From: an uncultured archaeon
GTDB lineage: Archaea > Asgardarchaeota > Lokiarchaeia > Sigyniarchaeales > SOKP01
Reading direction: 5' to 3'
Assembly (NCBI GenBank): GCA_964493715.1
Contig: CAZBPC010000029.1
Location: 2,205-34,356, forward strand
Length of the DNA stretch: 32,152 nucleotides
Below are positions 22,410 to 32,152 of the stretch, in pieces; position 1 is the first letter of the stretch; every line of letters begins with the position of its first letter. A program made the translations under genes and the position numbers. The notes beneath the pieces are model-generated. The model did no database searches and was not told the origin of the DNA. It worked only from the letters and a program-made list of their open reading frames with translations.

Positions 22410-25115
22410 TTAAATTAATTCTAAATGTTCCAGCAAAGTGTTTAACTTTTCTCTGTTTTCCTCATGTTCGGGATTTAAAATCAATCTTTTTTGATAAAAA
22501 ATAATATTTCCGTATTTTAATTCTAATTCATTAAATAATTTAATCCAAGAATTAAAATCCTGCATCAGTAATTTTACATCATCATCATCTTCGAAAAATT
22601 TTATATCCTTATTATCCATTGATAAAGTCATAGCTTTATATTTTTTTATTGAATAACCTTGCTTTCGTAGAAGTTCTGTATTGGTTCTCCTAATAAATGC
22701 ATCCAATCCATGTCTCCATCTAATGTATTTCTCATTTATTCTTTCAATTTTTTCTTGAATAATTTTAATTTCTTGTGGAATTATAGGGTCATCTTGTTTG
22801 GTAAGAATTTCCTTGATTTGAGTGAACTCATTTTGAAACCGCAGACAGTAATTTTTTACTAATTTTTCAAATTCAAGAAAGACAGCATTATACTTTTGGG
22901 CAAATATTATATCATCACTTGAGAATATGAGTGATTCTTCATCAAACCTACCCTTGATTCTCCGCGTTCTTAATAGATCTTTTACAATAGAGGTTAAAAG
23001 TTCGATTTCTTTACCTGAAAGCTCTTTCTCGGGAAAAAAGTCCTCAAAAGAAAACAAAGAACTCTCTTCCATCAGATTTTCTATGCCCAATTGAGTAAAA
23101 AATTGTAGCTGCCCATCCTCTTCATAAAAAATTCCCTTGATCTTATTCGATTTATGCAAATCACTTAGTAAATCTTTCACTATGCTTGATGTAATATTCA
23201 AATTGCCAAGATTTATGATTTCTGATGATCGTGATTTCTCAATCAACATTGACTTTATTTCTTCTTTTGCATCCTCGATTTTTGTTTCATTAATTATCAG
23301 AAAATCTCCCTTTTTAAAATACTTCAAACCTAGTTTTTCAATAAAATTTAAGAAATCGCTAGATGACATTCCAGTTTTTTCCACGTAATCACTTATCTTG
23401 ATCATATCACGTTTCTTGATTTCTTCTCCAATTAACCTGATATTTTCATCAATACTTGTTAAGATATGAGTTCTATCAATATTCAACTCTTTAGCTAAAA
23501 TATTTATGTTTTTTTCTTTTTCTACTGGATCAGTAATGAAAATTGTGATTCGATCCTTTATGAATTTTGAATAGTAAAACACTTCTCTATTTTTATCAAA
23601 GATTCCACTTCTTAAATCAATTTTTTGTTGAAAAATATCACTTATTAAGGGTTTTATTACATTAATCTTTTCAGATACTCTAGGTATAGAAAAGTAGCCT
23701 AATATTTTCGAGTTTTCAATCTCTTTATTTATTCTTAATAGTCCTAAATTAGTCAGCCAGTGTGTAGCTTTATGAAAACGTGATAGATAATCCTTTGGGA
23801 TATTTTTTATAAGTATTTTAAAATCGTCTTCTTCTAATCGCTCCTTAAACGATTTTAAATCTATAGAACTACTTTTAGCCGCTTCAGAACTAATTTGGCT
23901 TTCAATTTTTTTCAATGAATAAAATGCAGAATCACTTTTCCCCCTTAATAATTGAGTTTTTGATGATTCTGAAATTTCTCGGACTAATTTTTGAATGAGT
24001 GGATGTGGTAAGTAATTAAATTTTTTTGTATTGATTATCCCTTTCTCTTGTAATAAACTGGTAAATTCAGATTTTAAACTTGAAAAAGGATAAAAATAAC
24101 CTAATTCAGAATAATATCCCTGAATGAGGTTTAAATTAAGTAATTTATTCACCATTAATTTTAATTCGTGTTCATCTATGATAATCTGAGAAAAAATTTG
24201 TAATAAATCTTCATTCGATATTCTCTTTTTATCGAAAATTGATATTAACTTAATTTCCTCAAGTTCATAAAAGTTTATTTTTTTATCTTCTCGATTTTTG
24301 ATGTAAAAATAGATTTCCTTATTTTTATTTTTTGAATTTTTTACAGTATGTATTCTTTCTTTTAGTTCCTTTTCATTATCTTCAGAATATATCTTTTTTG
24401 ACATTAAGAAGAGTTCATCAAGTACATCGAGAGTTTGAAGTAAATTAAGGTCCTCCAACTTTAAATCTTTCATCATAGGAAAAACATGTATACAAAGTTT
24501 AATTAATTCAGAAGTAAACGGAGAATTATCAAAATGTTCAGTAAATAATTGTCTTACAAAATAACGAACTTCATATAAATAATTGAATGAAAAATCTTCA
24601 CATTTGATTAAAAAATTAACCAAAGAAATGAAATTATCTATATTCTTCTCGATACTTAGTGCTTTTAATATTGTTCCTTTTTCATCACATATCGAAATCT
24701 TCTTTTTCTCAATTAAGTCATTTAAGAAGTAATGAGCATTATCTCTTATATCCTTATCATCGTCTGACAAGAAATTAACCAATCGTTTGCGGAATTCATT
24801 CATAAAGCTTAAATTTTCTAGTGATGCAAAACCCAAAATTGTAATTGAGTTTAATTTTAACTTGGTATTATTTTCATTAAGATAACTGAAAACCTTCTTA
24901 ATCAACTCTTCACCAATAAGAGAACTCTCTTTTTCTATCAGAATACTAAGAATATAGGTGATTGGAACAACAAATTCCTTCTCATCTAAAAGAAGTTGTA
25001 ATTGTCCGATCAAATTAGAAGCTTTTTCTAATTTATTTTTAGCCAAATTTTTGTTAAGTTTTTCTATAATAGGGTAAAGTGGTTCAAATTTTTCAAAATC
25101 CTCTAGATTAAACAT
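22410..25115 (-). CDS. Large protein: N-terminal HEAT/ARM-like repeats, tandem PCI/winged-helix repeats, C-terminal coiled coil
   Basis: HEAT-like FLSDDDKDIRDNA and YLNENNTKLKLNSITILG; repeated LL.....I.G.F/Y motifs (LLNLNLIQGYY, LHKSNKIKGIF, LLRTRRIKGRF). Confidence 0.6.
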   Translation of the reverse strand: MFNLEDFEKFEPLYPIIEKLNKNLAKNKLEKASNLIGQLQLLLDEKEFVVPITYILSILIEKESSLIGEELIKKVFSYLNENNTKLKLNSITILGFASLENLSFMNEFRKRLVNFLSDDDKDIRDNAHYFLNDLIEKKKISICDEKGTILKALSIEKNIDNFISLVNFLIKCEDFSFNYLYEVRYFVRQLFTEHFDNSPFTSELIKLCIHVFPMMKDLKLEDLNLLQTLDVLDELFLMSKKIYSEDNEKELKERIHTVKNSKNKNKEIYFYIKNREDKKINFYELEEIKLISIFDKKRISNEDLLQIFSQIIIDEHELKLMVNKLLNLNLIQGYYSELGYFYPFSSLKSEFTSLLQEKGIINTKKFNYLPHPLIQKLVREISESSKTQLLRGKSDSAFYSLKKIESQISSEAAKSSSIDLKSFKERLEEDDFKILIKNIPKDYLSRFHKATHWLTNLGLLRINKEIENSKILGYFSIPRVSEKINVIKPLISDIFQQKIDLRSGIFDKNREVFYYSKFIKDRITIFITDPVEKEKNINILAKELNIDRTHILTSIDENIRLIGEEIKKRDMIKISDYVEKTGMSSSDFLNFIEKLGLKYFKKGDFLIINETKIEDAKEEIKSMLIEKSRSSEIINLGNLNITSSIVKDLLSDLHKSNKIKGIFYEEDGQLQFFTQLGIENLMEESSLFSFEDFFPEKELSGKEIELLTSIVKDLLRTRRIKGRFDEESLIFSSDDIIFAQKYNAVFLEFEKLVKNYCLRFQNEFTQIKEILTKQDDPIIPQEIKIIQEKIERINEKYIRWRHGLDAFIRRTNTELLRKQGYSIKKYKAMTLSMDNKDIKFFEDDDDVKLLMQDFNSWIKLFNELELKYGNIIFYQKRLILNPEHEENREKLNTLLEHLELI

Positions 25116-25134: not shown

Positions 25135-25863
25135 TTAACTTAATAAGAATTTTTTGATTGATTCAAGTTCTAATAGATTGGATATGTCTTCTAATATATA
25201 AGTAGGTTTAGTATTCTCTAAATCCTCTTTAACACCATGACCAGATAAAAGGGCAATACTTTTAATTTTGGCATTATTTGCTGACAAGATATCACTAGGA
25301 AGATCACCGATTAGGTAAACTTTAGTCTTATCTATTGATAGGTTATATTTTTTCTTAATTTGGTTTAATGCTAAATGAATGGGATAAGGATCGGGTTTCC
25401 GATATGGTGTATCGTCTCTAGAAATAAAAACAGAAAAAAAATCATCTAATTTCAACTTATCAATAAAGTAATTCAATCGTTTCTTAGTAGTATTTGATAT
25501 AATTCCTAAAGGAATGTCATTTTGTTTTAATTTTAATAATATATCTTTTAAATTCGGTTTAATTGTTTCATATTTTTCATACTTAGGGTACATTCTTCTG
25601 AATTTGATGAAAAAAATAATTCTTCTCCATTTATTTGGAATATACTTCTTGTAGTTCTTATATACCCTAAATAACGCCTTGATACGATTGCTTGAATCAG
25701 ATTGTTCAAACAGACGAGCTAAATCAATAAGCCTTAGACCATCGATATTCTGCCATCTATAAAATTTCATTTTAAGCTTAATTAGTGCAGTATATTCAAG
25801 AGCTTTTTGAGTTATTATAACCCCATCAAAATCGAATAGCAAAATAAGAGAATCTGACATCAC
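25135..25863 (-). CDS. HAD-superfamily phosphatase (subfamily IA)
   Basis: FDFDG motif I, ISN motif II, KPDP motif III, IGDLPSD motif IV. Confidence 0.92.
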   Translation of the reverse strand: MMSDSLILLFDFDGVIITQKALEYTALIKLKMKFYRWQNIDGLRLIDLARLFEQSDSSNRIKALFRVYKNYKKYIPNKWRRIIFFIKFRRMYPKYEKYETIKPNLKDILLKLKQNDIPLGIISNTTKKRLNYFIDKLKLDDFFSVFISRDDTPYRKPDPYPIHLALNQIKKKYNLSIDKTKVYLIGDLPSDILSANNAKIKSIALLSGHGVKEDLENTKPTYILEDISNLLELESIKKFLLS

Positions 25864-25996
25864 TGCTAATTAAAGTATTAAATGAAACTTAAAATTAATC
25901 ATTTTAAACCAAACTTGTTAAATATGTGAATTTAAAATGTAAGATATGAAAAAAAAGAAAAGAAAGTGTTTTTACAAATATTTGATAAAATCAAAT

Positions 25997-26665
25997 TCAG
26001 GTATTATCTAATTCATCAGGTTCTACACTCACGTAGCTCAAAAGTACATCAATTTGTTCCTGCTTCTTACTTATGTTAAGTACGGTGTTCAAATGAACCA
26101 CATCTCCGTGTCCAGGCATGAGCGTAATGCTTCCTGCTCGAAGAACAAAAAATTCAAATACATCTGGAATCTCCTTTAATATTCTCAAGCTTTTTGTTGG
26201 CATCCTTTCAGCAGAAGAGAATATTCCTTTTTTATGATAGATTTCGTTCCTCTCAATCTTCCAGTAATCAAATCTTGCACTAATCACGACCATCCCTAAA
26301 ATAAATACAAGAACTAATGTTATTACGAGATAGAAGTTGGAAGTTAATTCTAAATTAAATTCTCCCACGGGAGTGGGAAGTGACACGTTGGGCAAGACTA
26401 AAAAAAAGACTAACAGAAGGACTACTACGACAACCATAATTAACACAAAAAATTTCGCAGAAGAGAAGTCAAAAGCCATGATAAATAGGTTTGAGAAGAG
26501 CACTATTAACCATATGTTTCCATACAAAGCTAGTGGGGTTGGTTGAAAAAGTTGGAGTATCCAAAGTACAAAAGACACTAAGAGTAAAGGCCATAGAAAA
26601 ATTACTTTTGGATAACTACGTAAATAAACTTCATTAACTGTTTTTGTTGTTGGCATATAAATCAC
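25997..26665 (-). CDS. Four-TM membrane protein with probable C-terminal bacterial PH-like (bPH_2) domain
   Basis: Four hydrophobic segments followed by YWKIERNEIYHKKGIF...RAGSITL, which resembles YdbS/DUF304-type domains. Confidence 0.5.
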   Translation of the reverse strand: MIYMPTTKTVNEVYLRSYPKVIFLWPLLLVSFVLWILQLFQPTPLALYGNIWLIVLFSNLFIMAFDFSSAKFFVLIMVVVVVLLLVFFLVLPNVSLPTPVGEFNLELTSNFYLVITLVLVFILGMVVISARFDYWKIERNEIYHKKGIFSSAERMPTKSLRILKEIPDVFEFFVLRAGSITLMPGHGDVVHLNTVLNISKKQEQIDVLLSYVSVEPDELDNT

Positions 26666-26806
26666 TTTTTTTTTAAAATTTAAGTAAGGACAATAGTTTT
26701 TAAGATAATATATAGATTTTCTCTTTAAAAATATTCTTAAAGATCTTCAATTTTGATGTGAGATTTTTGAATCATATAGAGAGAGACAATTTCTTAAGAT
26801 AAATTG

Positions 26807-27565
26807 CTAAAATAAAGTACCAATAGAGTGAATCATTTTGAAAGACGCTGAAATAGCTTGATTTCCTTGAATACTTATTCCCATATGTCCTGGAAGCAAA
26901 TATTTAACATCTAATTCCTTTATTCTCTTAATTGATTCTTTTAATTTTTGTAATGATCCACCTGGAAAATCATATCTTCCAAAACTCCCACCAATAAAGA
27001 TTAAATCTCCAGGAATAAGAATTTTTAGATTTTCCTCATAATAACAGATGGAGCTTGGAGAATGACCAGGCGTATGTAGGATTTTAAATGTAAATTCCGA
27101 CCCAATATGTATTGATTCAAGCAATATTAATTCAGTAATATCAATTGGAATAATTTCCACTCCAAAATATTTAGCATTAATCCCAAAACTTTGAATACTA
27201 CTTGGAAATATTTTTTCTTCAATACCATTTCTCAAGATGTCTGCAGTTTCTCCAAAAGCAAAAATTTGGGGTTTTTTAACGTCCATTTTGTTTAAAATGT
27301 GATACAATCCAAGCACGTGGTCAACATGTTCATGTGTTATATAAATGCGAGTAATATCAGTAAATTGGAGATTTAATCGTTTCAAACCTTCAATAAGTCC
27401 ATTCAATGTTAATCCATTCCCCGCATCAAATAAACTTAGTTCTTTTGTATCTTGATCTCTTATAATAAACTGATTGCAATCAAGCATTCCTACCTCTGGG
27501 AAGAAAAATAGATTATCAATAACTTCTTCCCCATTTTTCAGTATTCCACTACTCTTATCAAACAT
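26807..27565 (-). CDS. Metallo-beta-lactamase-fold hydrolase (glyoxalase II-like)
   Basis: THEHVDH, HTPGHS, GDL, GRYDFPGGS and PGH motifs. Confidence 0.92.
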   Translation of the reverse strand: MFDKSSGILKNGEEVIDNLFFFPEVGMLDCNQFIIRDQDTKELSLFDAGNGLTLNGLIEGLKRLNLQFTDITRIYITHEHVDHVLGLYHILNKMDVKKPQIFAFGETADILRNGIEEKIFPSSIQSFGINAKYFGVEIIPIDITELILLESIHIGSEFTFKILHTPGHSPSSICYYEENLKILIPGDLIFIGGSFGRYDFPGGSLQKLKESIKRIKELDVKYLLPGHMGISIQGNQAISASFKMIHSIGTLF

Positions 27566-27671
27566 GACAATAATTCCAAACTATTTGGAAGAATTACAGT
27601 AATGATTCCTTTAATGTTTTACTCTTCAAAATTATAAAAAATAATTAATTATTGCACGTAAATTAAGTATT

Positions 27672-28070
27672 ATGGTAATAGAAAATGATCTTGAGAAATT
27701 GAAATCTAAGGTCAGGTTTGGTCTTAAGTTTTGGTTGGAGTTTGAAGAAGGAGATAATAAAAACATTTTAGGCTCCGGATGGGCAAAATTATTAAAACGT
27801 ATAGAAGAACTTGAATTAGAAGGGGCAAGTTCTTTAACTAAAGCAGCTGAAGATTGTGGTTATTCTTACAAGTATGCATGGAATATATTAAAAAGGATTC
27901 AAAAGAGAACTGGTGTTTCTCCTGTTGAAACCAGTAAAGGTGGTGCAGGTGGTGGAGGTTGGGTAAAATTGAATGAATGGGGTCATTTTTTACTAAGCAG
28001 GTATAATTCACTACTTCTTGAATTGAAAGAGATTGAAAAAAAACTTGAAAATACATTGAGATTAAACTGA
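27672..28070 (+). CDS. ModE-like N-terminal winged-helix regulator (no molybdate-binding domain)
   Basis: KFWL...LG.G...LL, SLTKAA, SYKYAW and GGAGGG signature. Confidence 0.85.
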   Translation: MVIENDLEKLKSKVRFGLKFWLEFEEGDNKNILGSGWAKLLKRIEELELEGASSLTKAAEDCGYSYKYAWNILKRIQKRTGVSPVETSKGGAGGGGWVKLNEWGHFLLSRYNSLLLELKEIEKKLENTLRLN

Positions 28071-28448
28071 CTAATAGATTTTAATTAGCTGACTCTTTAT
28101 TTTCTCATAATCTGTTGCTATTTCAATTAAAACTTTAATGTGGAATATAAACTAATAAAGGCTAGATGTTTTGGAGGAAAAACTTTCAGATATTGTAAAA
28201 CTCAAAGTCCAAGATTGCAGGATATATGATCCTTTAAAAATTACACTTGAAGTTAAGATCAGATATTGGTATAATCATTTGAATGAAAAATCATAAAAAA
28301 AGTAGAAAAACAAGGATACTTTCGCAAAAGTTTTTTAAAACTAGACTTAATTTTTAATAGATGGGATTTCTTTTTTACTTTATTCAAAAGAGAAATTTTT
28401 TTTATGAAAACAATATTCTCTATTTAAACACCAATATATTGATTTATC

Positions 28449-29975
28449 ATGGTTATTCCTTTACCCGGTACACCTGTAATAGTAGATGTAGGTTCGGCTT
28501 ATTGCAAAGTAGGTTTTGCAGGAGAACCTAGTCCCCGATTTGTCTTTCCAACAATAACAGGCACAGAAAAATATAAAGCTGTGATGGTTGATGTTAATGC
28601 AAGAAATATTTATATTGGAAACGATGCGTCTCGAATGAGAGGGGTACTTAAGGTAAAACACCCAATAGATAGAGGTGCTATTTTGGATTGGAATGATTAT
28701 TATGAAATTTTAAATTATATATTTTATACTCTTCTAAGGATTGATAATCTCTCCAATTATCCTGTCCTCTATACTGAAGCTCCCTTTGTACAAAGAGAAA
28801 CTAAAGAATATATCGCACGTGTTTTATATGAAACACATAGAATTAAAAGTTTAATAATGGTTCCAACTCCTATTCTTTCAATATTTAGTGTGGGATTGAC
28901 AACGGGTCTCGTGATTGAGTCTGGAGACGGATTAACATGGGTGTGCCCTATTATTAATGGGCAAATTATAGATCAGAGCGTACAGAAATTGACTTTAGCT
29001 GGAATGGATGTAAATCAATATTTAAAAAATCTATTGATGAGAGAGGGCATCAATATAGAATCTTCTGCAGTAGAAGAGATTATTAGAGAAATTAAAGAAA
29101 AAAACTGTTATTTCATTTTAGATCCAGAAAGTCAACCAGATATGAATGATAGTTTCAATTTGTCGATGCCTGATGGTTCTTCGATAAATATTCCTCATTT
29201 TATCTTTCATGAAGCTCCAGAAGTAATGTTTCAACCCCAATTACTTGGATATCCGATTATGAGCATCTCTCAAGCAATTATTGAGAGTTTACAAGGAATA
29301 GATAAACATTATTGGTCAGACCTTTTATCTCATATTGTCATATCGGGAGGAAATTTCTCTTACTCTGGTTTTGAAGATCGATTAAAAATGGAGTTAAATG
29401 CGTTATTACCTCAATTAGGCAAGATTCCGAAACCTAAAGTTAATGAAGCTAAACAAGATTCTAAATTAAAATTAAAAAGTATAAAAGGTGGGAAAAAATC
29501 ACAGGATACATGTCCTCATTGTGGTACATTGGTAGATTTATCTGATGACAAAGAATTCTGCCCTTCGTGTGGTGGACGAATGATACTTCCCGAATTATCT
29601 ATAGAATTAGGTGGAACCCCATCAAAAGTTGAAATGATTGATGGAAAAGTAATATGTCCTCATTGTAATAAATTAATAGAAGACTTTTCATCTATTTTCT
29701 GCCCGTATTGTGGAAAGGGAGTGCAAACATTTGATCCCCCAGATGCAATGGCAAAAAAGATCAATCAAACGGTTCTTGCTAAAGAATTTTCTGGTTTTTA
29801 TGATTCGGTTGAAGAGGTATTAAGATATTTTGTTCCGGATAATCTTCAATATGCTATCTTTAATGGAGCTGCCATCTTAGGAAGTTTACCTTCTTTTCTT
29901 CGATTATTTGTAACTCATGAAGAGTTCTTGCAGAATAATGAACACTTATACAAAGACATAAGCGAAATTTTCTAA
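28449..29975 (+). CDS. Actin-family (actin-related) protein with double zinc-ribbon insertion
   Basis: DVGSAYCKVGFAG..P..VFP, PIDRG, TEAP, TTGLVIESGDG, LAGMDV, IKEK.CY, MPDG, PEVMFQP, ISGG and GAAILGSL. The insertion carries CPHC..CPSC and CPHC..CPYC. Confidence 0.93.
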   Translation: MVIPLPGTPVIVDVGSAYCKVGFAGEPSPRFVFPTITGTEKYKAVMVDVNARNIYIGNDASRMRGVLKVKHPIDRGAILDWNDYYEILNYIFYTLLRIDNLSNYPVLYTEAPFVQRETKEYIARVLYETHRIKSLIMVPTPILSIFSVGLTTGLVIESGDGLTWVCPIINGQIIDQSVQKLTLAGMDVNQYLKNLLMREGINIESSAVEEIIREIKEKNCYFILDPESQPDMNDSFNLSMPDGSSINIPHFIFHEAPEVMFQPQLLGYPIMSISQAIIESLQGIDKHYWSDLLSHIVISGGNFSYSGFEDRLKMELNALLPQLGKIPKPKVNEAKQDSKLKLKSIKGGKKSQDTCPHCGTLVDLSDDKEFCPSCGGRMILPELSIELGGTPSKVEMIDGKVICPHCNKLIEDFSSIFCPYCGKGVQTFDPPDAMAKKINQTVLAKEFSGFYDSVEEVLRYFVPDNLQYAIFNGAAILGSLPSFLRLFVTHEEFLQNNEHLYKDISEIF

Positions 29976-30147
29976 ATTCATTTAGTTAGAAATTTAGATG
30001 TCTCTTGTAAGAATTTTTATTAACTATGATAAATCTTAATAAACTGAAATTTTAAAACAACTCTGTTGAAATACCGATAATTTTTAATTTCAAGTTGAAT
30101 TAAAAAAATTAAATTCTATTTAAAACCAGATCGAGGTTTTTAGTTAA

Positions 30148-31251
30148 TTGAGATATAAAGTTCGGTATTTGACATTTAGCTTATTGTTCTTAGTAATATT
30201 TATGCTCATTATTCCTCTTGCTTCAGCGAAACCTAGAGATTCTTACTTAGTTGACTTTATTTATTCTAAACAAGTAGGAGATGAAGGTTTTGGTAATTCA
30301 TATCAAGATACTGCACAAGCTTTAGAGATATTAGATTATTTTAATGCTTTTACCGTTGAAGGTTTGTTTGGTGTTGAGAATAAAGTCGATGTCGCCACTC
30401 TGGGAGATTATTTAAATGATCAACTAACGGAGATGTTTGAGGATAAAAATGTGAATTTATATGATTTATATAGCATTTTAAAATCATTAACTTATCTCAA
30501 TTATTTGATAGACTCAGATCTGAGTTTGAATATTTATGCTTATCTCAATTCTTCTGGACATGTTAATGGTGGTTTTGCTCCAACAAATACTTCTAAAGCT
30601 GTAAATGTTGTTTCTACTTTCTATGCTTATCAAATATATGATCTACTTGAGGTAGACATGCCAAATCAAACTATTCATGTAAACTGGCTTCTCTCTTGTA
30701 ACAATACTGATGGTGGATATGGTGGTAATTCAACACTATCTTCTAATATATTAACTACTTCTCAAGTTGTTATATTAATTAAAGAACTAACCGGAAGTAC
30801 TGATAACCTTGTTAATAAAACTGCTACGCTGGAATATTTAACATCTTTTTACATAAGCAACGCTGCTGATGTTAATAATTTTGGAGGATATTTGCCTGAT
30901 ATTACCGCTCTAAACGTGCTATTAAGTAGTTCCTTTATATGTTCAGATTCAATTAGATTAATTGATTCAACAGAATTACATCAAGTCCCAACCATAAATA
31001 TGGTATTATCTCGTCAAAATTTTCAGGATGGAGGTTTTAGTGATAAAATTCCAGGAGTTTATAAAGAACTCTCATCAGTAACAGCATCCTATTATGCTTT
31101 CAAGATACTTTACACATTTGATTCGCTTCATTTATTAAATGAAGAGATATTTATGGTAGAATTCAATTATATGTTATTAACAATCGTGTTATTGGCAATA
31201 GGTATCTTGGTATTTGTTGCATACTGGGTTTGGCGTAAAAGAAAGATTTAA
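30148..31251 (+). CDS. Secreted, C-terminally anchored protein with prenyltransferase/squalene-cyclase-type (alpha/alpha toroid) repeats
   Basis: Signal peptide ending PLASA; repeats NGGF, CNNTDGGYG, FGGY and RQNFQDGGF; C-terminal TM followed by RKRKI; several N-x-S/T sequons. Confidence 0.75.
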   Translation: MRYKVRYLTFSLLFLVIFMLIIPLASAKPRDSYLVDFIYSKQVGDEGFGNSYQDTAQALEILDYFNAFTVEGLFGVENKVDVATLGDYLNDQLTEMFEDKNVNLYDLYSILKSLTYLNYLIDSDLSLNIYAYLNSSGHVNGGFAPTNTSKAVNVVSTFYAYQIYDLLEVDMPNQTIHVNWLLSCNNTDGGYGGNSTLSSNILTTSQVVILIKELTGSTDNLVNKTATLEYLTSFYISNAADVNNFGGYLPDITALNVLLSSSFICSDSIRLIDSTELHQVPTINMVLSRQNFQDGGFSDKIPGVYKELSSVTASYYAFKILYTFDSLHLLNEEIFMVEFNYMLLTIVLLAIGILVFVAYWVWRKRKI

Positions 31252-31348
31252 TCTTAACAAGTTTATTTAATAAACGTCTAATAATATTTATTTAATTTGA
31301 TCCTATTTTACTAGTTTATATCACATTTTAGATTAGAGCAAGATTGTT

Positions 31349-32152
31349 ATGGAAAAAATCTTAGATGGAAAAGCGCTTGCCCAAAAATTAAATAATGAAT
31401 TAAAATCTGAATTTAATCAATTATATATCTTCTCCAAAATTAAACCTAAACTCGCCACAATATTAGTTGGAGAAGATCCCGCTTCACAAGTATATATTAA
31501 CATAAAAACAAAAGTATGTGCAGAAGTTGGGATTGAATCAATTTCTATTAAACATCCTGCTAATATAGATAGTGAGGAATTAATAGCAAGTATTAAAGAA
31601 CTCAATCGTGATGATTCAATACATGGAATACTTCTCCAAATTCCCCTTCCAAATCACTTAAAACCTCACATTTCTACCTTTATCAACCAAATTTCACCTA
31701 AAAAAGATGTTGATGGGTTGCATCCTATTAATAAAGGCAAATTATTTGACTATAATGAAGAATATGCACCGTGTACACCGAAAGGAATCATCGCGCTTCT
31801 GGAACATTATAATGTAAATTTAAAAGGAAAGTTTACGGTAATTATCAATCGTTCAAATCTAGTTGGGAAACCATTAATCTTCTTATTATTAAAAAGAAAT
31901 GCCACAGTGGCAGTTTGCCATACTTCTACGATAAATATTGAGAAATTGACAAAAATGGCTGACATTTTAATAGTAGCTGTAGGTAAACCTAATTTTATCT
32001 CAAAAGATAAAATAAAAGAAGGAGCTATTCTCATAGATGTTGGTGTTAGCAGAGTAAATGGTAAATTATGCGGAGATGTTAATTTTAATGATGTATTTGA
32101 AAAATGTGGAATGATAACTCCAAATCCAGGCGGAATAGGTCCTCTCACAGTC
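31349..32152 (+). CDS. folD: Bifunctional methylene-THF dehydrogenase/cyclohydrolase, 3'-truncated by the window edge; not in the ORF track
   Basis: Translated by hand: MEKILDGKALA...LATILVGEDPASQVY...HGILLQIPLP...KDVDG...PCTPKG...NRSNLVGKP...IDVG...GDV...TPNPGGIGPLTV, open to 32152. Confidence 0.96.
   Translation, partial: MEKILDGKALAQKLNNELKSEFNQLYIFSKIKPKLATILVGEDPASQVYINIKTKVCAEVGIESISIKHPANIDSEELIASIKELNRDDSIHGILLQIPLPNHLKPHISTFINQISPKKDVDGLHPINKGKLFDYNEEYAPCTPKGIIALLEHYNVNLKGKFTVIINRSNLVGKPLIFLLLKRNATVAVCHTSTINIEKLTKMADILIVAVGKPNFISKDKIKEGAILIDVGVSRVNGKLCGDVNFNDVFEKCGMITPNPGGIGPLTV

Follow-up and report, generated by a model that had tools for sequence, protein, structure and literature searches.

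A conserved, order-restricted actin-family protein of Lokiarchaeia with two putative zinc ribbons inserted in its core

Lokiactin is present in all Asgard lineages according to Rodrigues-Oliveira et al. (PMC9834061), who report four actin homologues in Candidatus (Ca.) L. ossiferum, three of them called 'ARPs' (actin-related proteins), and state that transcripts of lokiactin were 'severalfold higher' than the transcripts of these three. In the same paper, Supplementary Tables 2 and 3 assign 'Actin; Double zinc ribbon' to an orthogroup, ORTHOMCL2209, that is shared by L. ossiferum and Ca. P. syntrophicum, and in the supplement one of the three L. ossiferum ARPs, UYP44711.1, is an Actin + Zn-ribbon protein. 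This Actin;DZR architecture is already recorded by automatic annotation in both cultured Lokiarchaeia; it is not discussed in the text found, and the main text of PMC9834061, in which the word 'zinc' has no occurrence, does not mention the insert. The gene described here was found in a 32,152-nucleotide stretch of contig CAZBPC010000029.1 (assembly GCA_964493715.1; hereafter the window) from an uncultured archaeon of the order Sigyniarchaeales, class Lokiarchaeia. It encodes a fourth, specialised actin-family paralogue of one Lokiarchaeia order, here termed ZnR-actin, which is a conserved, order-restricted and uncharacterised variant of the actin family whose mechanism can only be inferred. 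To our knowledge, studies so far have dealt with lokiactin, profilins and gelsolins only, and the other Asgard actin paralogues remain unnamed 'ARPs'.

A broader survey of Asgard actins by Da Cunha et al. (bioRxiv 10.1101/2020.06.16.150565; Mol Biol Evol 2022) distinguishes five 'asgardactin' clades, two of which contain only Lokiarchaeota; neither 'insertion' nor 'zinc' occurs in the preprint text. Full-text literature searches, with bioRxiv supplements outside their scope, returned no description of a zinc ribbon inside an Asgard actin. An earlier annotation of the window, made from the letters alone (the first-pass annotation), had stated that it knew of no characterised actin with this architecture. 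That statement stands for the literature found, but the architecture as such is listed in Supplementary Table 2 of PMC9834061.

The gene and the parts of its product are given below in window positions. Top-residue frequencies are means over alignment columns, and the predicted local distance difference test (pLDDT) values are those of an AlphaFold2 (AF2) model.

28449..29975, plus strand: ZnR-actin gene, 508 aa and stop codon (open reading frame list and translation; Pfam Actin and DZR/Zn_ribbon_3; at least 120 relatives at 60-92% identity)
28449..29426, plus strand: N-terminal part of the actin core, residues 1-326, comprising subdomains 1, 2, 4 and most of 3 (phmmer alignment to actin 8-327)
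29427..29504, plus strand: tether 1, residues 327-352 (conserved P-K-P-K start, variable sequence, net basic, fixed length)
29505..29582, plus strand: zinc ribbon 1 (ZnR1), residues 353-378, with C355, C358, C371 and C374 (Pfam Zn_ribbon_3 on 354-378; cysteines invariant)
29583..29648, plus strand: variable inter-ribbon linker, residues 379-400 (top-residue frequency 0.44; pLDDT <50 at 380-392)
29649..29720, plus strand: zinc ribbon 2 (ZnR2), residues 401-424, with C403, C406, C418 and C421 (Pfam Zn_Ribbon_1 on 403-423, DZR on 355-422; cysteines invariant)
29721..29777, plus strand: variable tether 2, residues 425-443 (top-residue frequency 0.43; pLDDT <50 at 427-445)
29778..29822, plus strand: return segment, residues 444-458, with a conserved A-x-E-F motif (E446 and F447 invariant; predicted short strand into subdomain 3)
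29823..29972, plus strand: C-terminal part of the actin core, residues 459-508, comprising the last subdomain-3 strand and the subdomain-1 cleft helices (phmmer to actin 328-365; top-residue frequency 0.80)

In a phmmer comparison with all PDB chains, residues 10-326 align to actin 8-327 and residues 459-496 to actin 328-365, with an insert of about 132 residues (327-458, nt 29427-29822) between actin 327 and 328. The Pfam Actin profile (PF00022) matches residues 9-324 with an E-value of 2.9e-68 and 230.8 bits against a cut-off of 27. The Zn_ribbon_3 (PF13248; 41.7 bits, cut-off 27), DZR (PF12773; 35.8 bits, cut-off 27.3) and Zn_Ribbon_1 matches are likewise above their cut-offs, and together span residues 354-423. 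The first-pass annotation had described a protein that is colinear with actin up to ELNALLP (residues 315-321) and resumes at LRYFVPDNLQYAIFNGAAILGSL (residues 458-480), with some 130 residues at 29420-29810 between the two; translation and phmmer alignment bear out the colinearity, and the insert of 132 residues lies close to that span. Both cysteine modules are present exactly as it gave them, CPHC-x12-CPSC at residues 355-374 (nt 29511-29570) and CPHC-x11-CPYC at residues 403-421 (nt 29655-29711). These putative zinc-binding modules are two four-cysteine ribbons on flexible tethers in a surface loop.

The insert on its own has no usable match in the ESM Atlas, and a search of the genome for a close paralogue of it yielded none, only 17 weak ribbon matches with E-values of 4e-4 to 0.09. 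The 13-mer ATGTCCTCATTGT has exactly two copies, both within the insert (at 29510 and 29654), against an expectation of 0 from shuffled sequence. The repeat is real, but it is no sign of the internal duplication that it had been taken to hint at, at least not of a recent one: the 13-mer is a codon coincidence encoding (T/I)CPHC in both ribbons, since orthologues carry different residues there and the two ribbons have only 10 of 22 residues in common, mostly the Cys/Pro/Gly skeleton.

Relatives were collected with a word-indexed protein search, which gave 296 sequences with E <=0.001; the best 120 of these 296 were analysed, and counts below refer to these and the query (121 sequences) unless stated otherwise. 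The 120 relatives are 60-92% identical to the query and 455-512 aa long, and all 121 sequences contain two CxxC...CxxC modules. In an alignment of 52 sequences, a subset chosen to spread identity, all eight cysteines are invariant and mean column identity is 73%. The length of the insert is held at 124-134 residues (median 131) despite the variable tethers; tether 1 is 24-28 residues long, with a net positive charge in 116 sequences and a mean top-residue frequency of 0.54, and the inter-ribbon linker is 13-22 residues long. ZnR1 is net acidic, with a negative charge in 118 sequences.

An assembly chimera, against which the first-pass annotation had proposed to test its reading, or alternatively a decaying pseudogene, was considered as another explanation. 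The one observation in favour is that the gene is split over two frames in 2 of the 126 matching genomes of the same family (f1), the source genome (G000) included; these matches (G195:C12:3133-3746 and G229:C102:13315-13928) could reflect a frameshift, a sequencing error or a pseudogene. Against it stand the intact frame and eight cysteines in all 121 sequences, which come from many sources, the strong overall conservation, and Logan contigs from three other runs (X3, X4 and X5) that span both insert junctions without joints or indels. The three runs are salt-marsh DNA metagenomes of one year, and no RNA run was among the matches listed. Since they may stem from the source's own campaign, the stronger argument is that the relatives come from many independent assemblies. 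The insert is confirmed as neither chance nor chimera, and this explanation, already refuted, retains practically no probability.

The distribution of ZnR-actin was assessed by scanning 398 Asgard genomes with residues 301-508, a search for the actin-plus-ribbon architecture of the kind that had been suggested. A match was found in 125 of the 132 genomes of the same family, the seven without one ranging in completeness from 61 to 100% and including one genome rated 100% complete. In three sister families of the same order, 18 of 19 genomes have a match, weaker and mostly in frames of 489-566 aa; the sister-family relatives examined are 33-44% identical and 499-552 aa long with one or two ribbons, and four sister-family loci have their ribbon(s) at the same site, two ribbons in two of them and one ribbon in the other two. 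The seven other genomes of the class contain no match, and the 239 other genomes of the phylum contain only six weak ones, with E-values of about 1e-6. Strong ZnR-actin matches are limited to one order. Relatives at 60-75% identity bear submitters' names as varied as Loki-, Hod-, Hermod-, Thor- and Heimdall-archaeota, and these names look loose, because the scanned genomes with the gene, sorted by GTDB rank, all fall in one order. In an exhaustive search of 1.84 billion representatives, a handful of insert-bearing clusters at 50% identity (P0122-P0128 and P0140) is followed by eukaryotic actins that are about 36% identical; all full-length relatives with more than 40% identity have ribbon(s), and P0134, P0137 and P0172 are fragments.

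The source genome contains four actin-family genes, a lokiactin of 381 aa, a 370-aa paralogue, ZnR-actin and a divergent 391-aa paralogue, with Pfam Actin scores of 440.6, 295.2, 218.8 (ZnR-actin) and 157.1 bits. ZnR-actin is 37% identical to the genome's own lokiactin, to which the other lokiactins aligned are 79-95% identical. In a quick maximum-likelihood tree (65 rows, LG+G4, 377 columns kept, with the insert columns mostly dropped and the fragment P0137 excluded), all 15 ribbon-bearing sequences form one clade with a Shimodaira-Hasegawa-like approximate likelihood ratio test (SH-aLRT) value of 100. In this tree the ribbon-bearing actins have a single origin. The sister of the clade is the genome's 370-aa paralogue, weakly supported (SH-aLRT 88); the lokiactins are a separate clade in the same tree, whose backbone is not resolved. 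One-ribbon forms are both basal (P0127 and L026) and nested (L024) in the clade, so that the tree is equally compatible with one gain and one loss of a ribbon and with two losses. Of the tree neighbours, ten were looked up, and the five that are named are eukaryotic or divergent actins (three) and Asgard actins (two), none of them an Arp. The first-pass annotation had put forward a distinct class of Asgard actin relatives, which agrees with the one clade, the one order and the family-invariant substitutions described below. Of the phylogeny it had called for, the separation of one ribbon clade from the lokiactins holds; a placement among the Arps is not given by a backbone-unresolved tree that includes no labelled Arp.

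Substitutions are found in the nucleotide site, where Q137 and H161 are the catalytic residues of actin (actin numbering, mapped through the phmmer alignment). Q137 is threonine in 97 and serine in 24 of the 121 sequences, and H161 is tryptophan in all 121; D154 is replaced by glutamate in 119, G15 by alanine in 115 and K336 by glutamine in 111. In the N-terminal core of the query these changes appear as Q137 to T140, D154 to E157 and H161 to W164, and the phosphate loops are intact. The residues of the phosphate-1, phosphate-2 and adenosine loops (D11, S14, K18, G156-D157-G158 and G301-G302) are kept almost throughout (D11 in 119, S14 in 118, K18 in 119, D157 in 117, G301 and G302 in 121), and K213 and E214 are both kept in 121. 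Q137 is absent in the wider ribbon clade too, whereas the genome's own lokiactin retains both Q137 and H161. Because Q137 and H161 are lost in the family, we propose that the protein may anchor or cap actin filaments.

Conservation is highest in the D-loop (DNase I-binding loop) region and the cleft helix, with mean top-residue frequencies of 0.88 and 0.90 against 0.75 for the whole protein, followed by 0.78 for ZnR1 and 0.69 for ZnR2 and by 0.43-0.54 for the tethers. In the 52-sequence alignment, actin R290 is replaced by an invariant tryptophan. The AF2 model (alignment A1) has a mean pLDDT of 70.3 and a predicted template modelling (pTM) score of 0.62, with a confident actin core, ribbons at pLDDT of about 66-72, and tethers (residues 333-349 in tether 1) and D-loop below 50. 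The return segment forms a strand at 447-450, with a mean pLDDT of 81 over residues 451-460. Foldseek places actins at the top of its matches (E about 1e-26, template modelling (TM) scores of 0.76-0.81 normalised to the target), and the best solved ones are actins such as 4efh and 9wc4 'HC1 actin'.

The faces of the family were also compared with the lokiactin consensus, by means of filamentous actin (F-actin) contact lists that were not computed here; the numbers are small and no statistical test was applied. Overall, 135 of 346 positions are identical. The pointed-face segments are identical at 16 of 32 positions, the cleft at 10 of 21 and the D-loop at 7 of 13, and the subdomain-3 barbed-side segments (166-171, 283-294 and 320-327) at 5 of 26 and the lateral-contact positions at 7 of 24. 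On sequence grounds we lean towards a protein with an intact pointed face and cleft and an altered subdomain-3 barbed side, from which the insert exits. The insert adjoins actin residues 322-325, which we take to be a longitudinal filament contact, in keeping with the earlier suggestion that this loop is near filament contacts.

In our best reading, which is possible but somewhat short of evenly probable, ZnR-actin would act as an actin-fold adaptor that does not cycle; docked on lokiactin, it would hold a partner by means of its ribbons and so cap or anchor filaments. The roles of capper, nucleator or adaptor that the first-pass annotation had offered, and any ligand of the ribbons, are likewise proposals. 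ZnR-actin would hold a nucleotide without cycling it and would therefore not be a dynamic polymer. Its actin-type surfaces would dock on lokiactin, most likely with the pointed face onto the barbed end of a filament, while its own barbed side would be altered by the insert, the R290 to W substitution and a diverged subdomain-3 surface. The two ribbons, spaced by their tethers at a set distance, may bind a partner protein or a membrane-associated assembly, and as a result filament ends would be capped or anchored, or filaments coupled to the partner. The acidic charge of ZnR1 fits protein binding better than nucleic-acid binding, and the lower transcript levels of the ARPs than of lokiactin in Ca. 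L. ossiferum fit a sub-stoichiometric accessory role.

Several considerations weigh against this adaptor. The model is moderate, with ribbon placement carrying no confidence because the tethers fall below a pLDDT of 50. The loss of Q137 and H161 lowers hydrolysis but need not abolish it. The comparison of faces draws on contact lists that were not computed, with small numbers and no statistics, and a conserved D-loop and cleft are equally expected of an actin that polymerises by itself. The Arp3 insert presumably lies in the same loop, yet barbed-end growth is still templated there; an insert in this loop therefore need not block subunit addition.

The conserved D-loop and cleft helix, the two halves of the main longitudinal contact, also speak for a homopolymer, in which ZnR-actin would form a second, slowly cycling filament system with ribbon arms that project from its surface and carry or position cargo, as ParM/Alp-type actins do with DNA. 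The Y-W motif at actin 289-290, specific to the family and with W289 invariant, might have co-evolved as a self-contact, and the fixed arm length would suit regular display along a filament; if so, these cells would have a second actin-type filament system. However, the segments for lateral contacts are poorly lokiactin-like, none of the 121 sequences keeps the catalytic residues on which turnover depends, the insert exits beside a subdomain-3/subdomain-4 contact, and the acidic ZnR1 speaks against DNA as the cargo of that ribbon. We regard a homopolymer as doubtful, though worth keeping in view.

The neighbourhood of the gene bears on a different possibility. Its two flanking genes are:

27672..28070, plus strand: upstream syntenic neighbour, 132-aa ModE-N-like helix-turn-helix protein (NCBIfam ModE_repress, E 4.7e-12, below the cut-off)
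30148..31251, plus strand: downstream syntenic neighbour, 367-aa protein with a prenyltransferase-type alpha/alpha-toroid domain (Pfam Prenyltrans, E 5.2e-13)

The toroid protein has a hydrophobic N-terminus and a C-terminal hydrophobic anchor. Synteny was assessed in 14 loci (ten of the same family, three of one sister family and one of another) by tblastn at E <=1e-8 within about 6 kb. The helix-turn-helix gene is kept near ZnR-actin in 12 of 14 loci, the toroid gene in 12 of 14, including the three of one sister family, and FolD in 10 of 14. The order helix-turn-helix, ZnR-actin, toroid, FolD on one strand survives in a sister family in which the actin is 34-44% identical. The block at 25135-32152 of the window (compared over loci L017-L030) comprises a haloacid dehalogenase (HAD) hydrolase, a 222-aa protein and a metallo-beta-lactamase (MBL)-fold protein on the minus strand, and the helix-turn-helix, actin, toroid and FolD genes on the plus strand; the whole block is syntenic across the family. 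Because it includes MBL-fold, HAD and FolD housekeeping genes, adjacency is weak evidence, and a functional link of ZnR-actin to the helix-turn-helix and toroid neighbours is unproven. Beyond this block, a 901-aa protein at 22410-25115 on the minus strand has a weak, below-cut-off match to Pfam Cnd1 HEAT (E 9.6e-4) and is conserved in the vicinity of the actin gene in 8 of the 14 loci, where the locus end often truncates it.

The region upstream of the actin gene (28060-28460) has no evident conserved repeat array, only two-copy direct repeats and weak AT-rich palindromes. A 19-nt direct repeat (28186-28204 and 28259-28277, 79% identical, 73 nt apart) sits in the 378-nt AT-rich intergenic region; with two copies, it may be due to chance. 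By eye, no obvious box is shared by the 60 nt upstream of 13 orthologues.

A helix-turn-helix gene directly upstream in 12 of 14 loci would suit an actin-fold protein that does not form filaments and instead serves as a subunit of a multiprotein complex, like nuclear Arp4 and Arp8, with the ribbons or the basic tether touching nucleic acid or a regulator. Some non-polymerising eukaryotic Arps likewise lose the hydrolysis residues and keep the nucleotide loops, the combination seen here, and tether 1 is basic in 116 of 121 sequences. Such a subunit is nevertheless rather improbable: the highly conserved and lokiactin-like D-loop is unexpected without an actin-type contact, ZnR1 is acidic, the upstream intergenic region is without a conspicuous conserved repeat array, and the synteny spans a whole block of unrelated housekeeping genes.

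Ribbon modules similar to the insert are found elsewhere. Membrane proteins of 482-506 aa with a G/R-repeat N-terminus and two hydrophobic segments are encoded in the source genome (contig C54, locus L039 178-1698) and at two further loci (L031 4786-6234 and L032 3998-5464). After the second hydrophobic segment, their C-terminal tail consists of a K/P-rich tether and a double zinc ribbon resembling the actin insert, with 35-42% identity between the insert and the sister-genome tails over about 76-101 residues, including the stretches FCPSCGG and GTPSKV. In addition, contig C38 of the source genome (L034 58-2859) encodes two adjacent paralogues of 425 and 455 aa, each of which contains a Cys-rich cluster internally and ends in a CxxC...CxxC ribbon; the second ribbon is 46% identical to ZnR2 over 24 residues. 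In the supplement of PMC9834061, the ribbon of the actin falls in asCOG cog.000173, which also marks an ESCRT-I-like (endosomal sorting complex required for transport) Vps23/steadiness-box protein, an SPFH protein and surface-protein membrane domains; the Znr_PH_CC_SB protein of Makarova et al. may be compared with the ESCRT-I-like one.

From these relations it might be argued that actin is connected by the ribbons with the membrane or with division/ESCRT machinery, which overlaps with the adaptor preferred above. The shared cog.000173 and the similar basic tether and double ribbon at the tail of a membrane protein, here and in sister genomes, would be in line with such a link. A precedent is CdpC, a dual-zinc-ribbon protein of Haloferax volcanii that anchors FtsZ1 to the membrane and for which distant multi-ribbon homologues are reported in Lokiarchaeia (bioRxiv 10.64898/2026.07.16.738847). 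However, cog.000173 is a broad profile, and having it in common says no more than that the ribbons are of one type; no helix of four or more residues is predicted at 327-446 in the AF2 model, so that there is no obvious CdpC-like amphipathic helix; and a search of the genome with Pfam bPH_3 for an ESCRT-I-like (Znr_PH_CC_SB) protein found nothing. As a reading in itself this link seems unlikely. We give a similarly low probability to a more specific arrangement, in which ZnR-actin would be an ATP-locked pseudo-subunit on the barbed end of lokiactin filaments and the ribbons would couple these ends to membrane-remodelling or division machinery. Such an end-anchor would be a prokaryotic counterpart of capping protein, formins or the Arp ends of dynactin, and would tie the Asgard actin cytoskeleton directly and physically to the membrane.

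The regulation and membrane attachment of Asgard actin bear on models of eukaryogenesis. ZnR-actin is near-universal in a large Lokiarchaeal family and has a clear anatomy, a predicted locked nucleotide site and a measured two-ribbon arm, and the isolated insert is a ready bait for partners of the Asgard cytoskeleton.

Among known proteins with a comparable arrangement, CdpC also has two linker-joined zinc ribbons that couple a cytoskeletal polymer to something else. It differs, as described in the preprint, in that it is a protein on its own, binds FtsZ1 and has an amphipathic helix as well as a long disordered linker, and the likeness is an analogy by description. ZnR-actin, with no helix of at least four residues at 327-446 and a linker of only 13-22 residues, does not have the make-up of a CdpC-like anchor.

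Eukaryotic Arps with core inserts, such as Arp3, Arp8 and others, likewise combine the actin fold with lineage-specific inserts that add function. No eukaryotic Arp is known to us to carry zinc ribbons in such an insert. The first-pass annotation had held that this loop takes inserts in some eukaryotic Arps: functional core inserts are documented for Arp3, where they control filament contacts and subunit attachment (in a passage citing Liu et al. 2013), which backs the statement in general. One of the Arp3 inserts presumably lies in exactly this loop. Among archaeal actins, the restricted distribution of the Lokiarchaeota-only clades 'Asgardactin 02/03' matches that of ZnR-actin, as far as the text of Da Cunha et al. 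goes.

With lokiactin and conventional actin, ZnR-actin shares the fold, the colinear segments actin 8-327 and 328-365, the phosphate loops and a similar D-loop and cleft. It differs from lokiactin in being only 37% identical, in the 132-residue insert, in the replacement of Q137, H161 and D154, and in its occurrence in one order only. A closely comparable described protein is UYP44711.1 of ORTHOMCL2209, with orthology inferred from annotation only: it has the same actin-ribbon-actin layout, comes from the same class and, in the tree of PMC9834061, groups with the ARPs and not with lokiactin.

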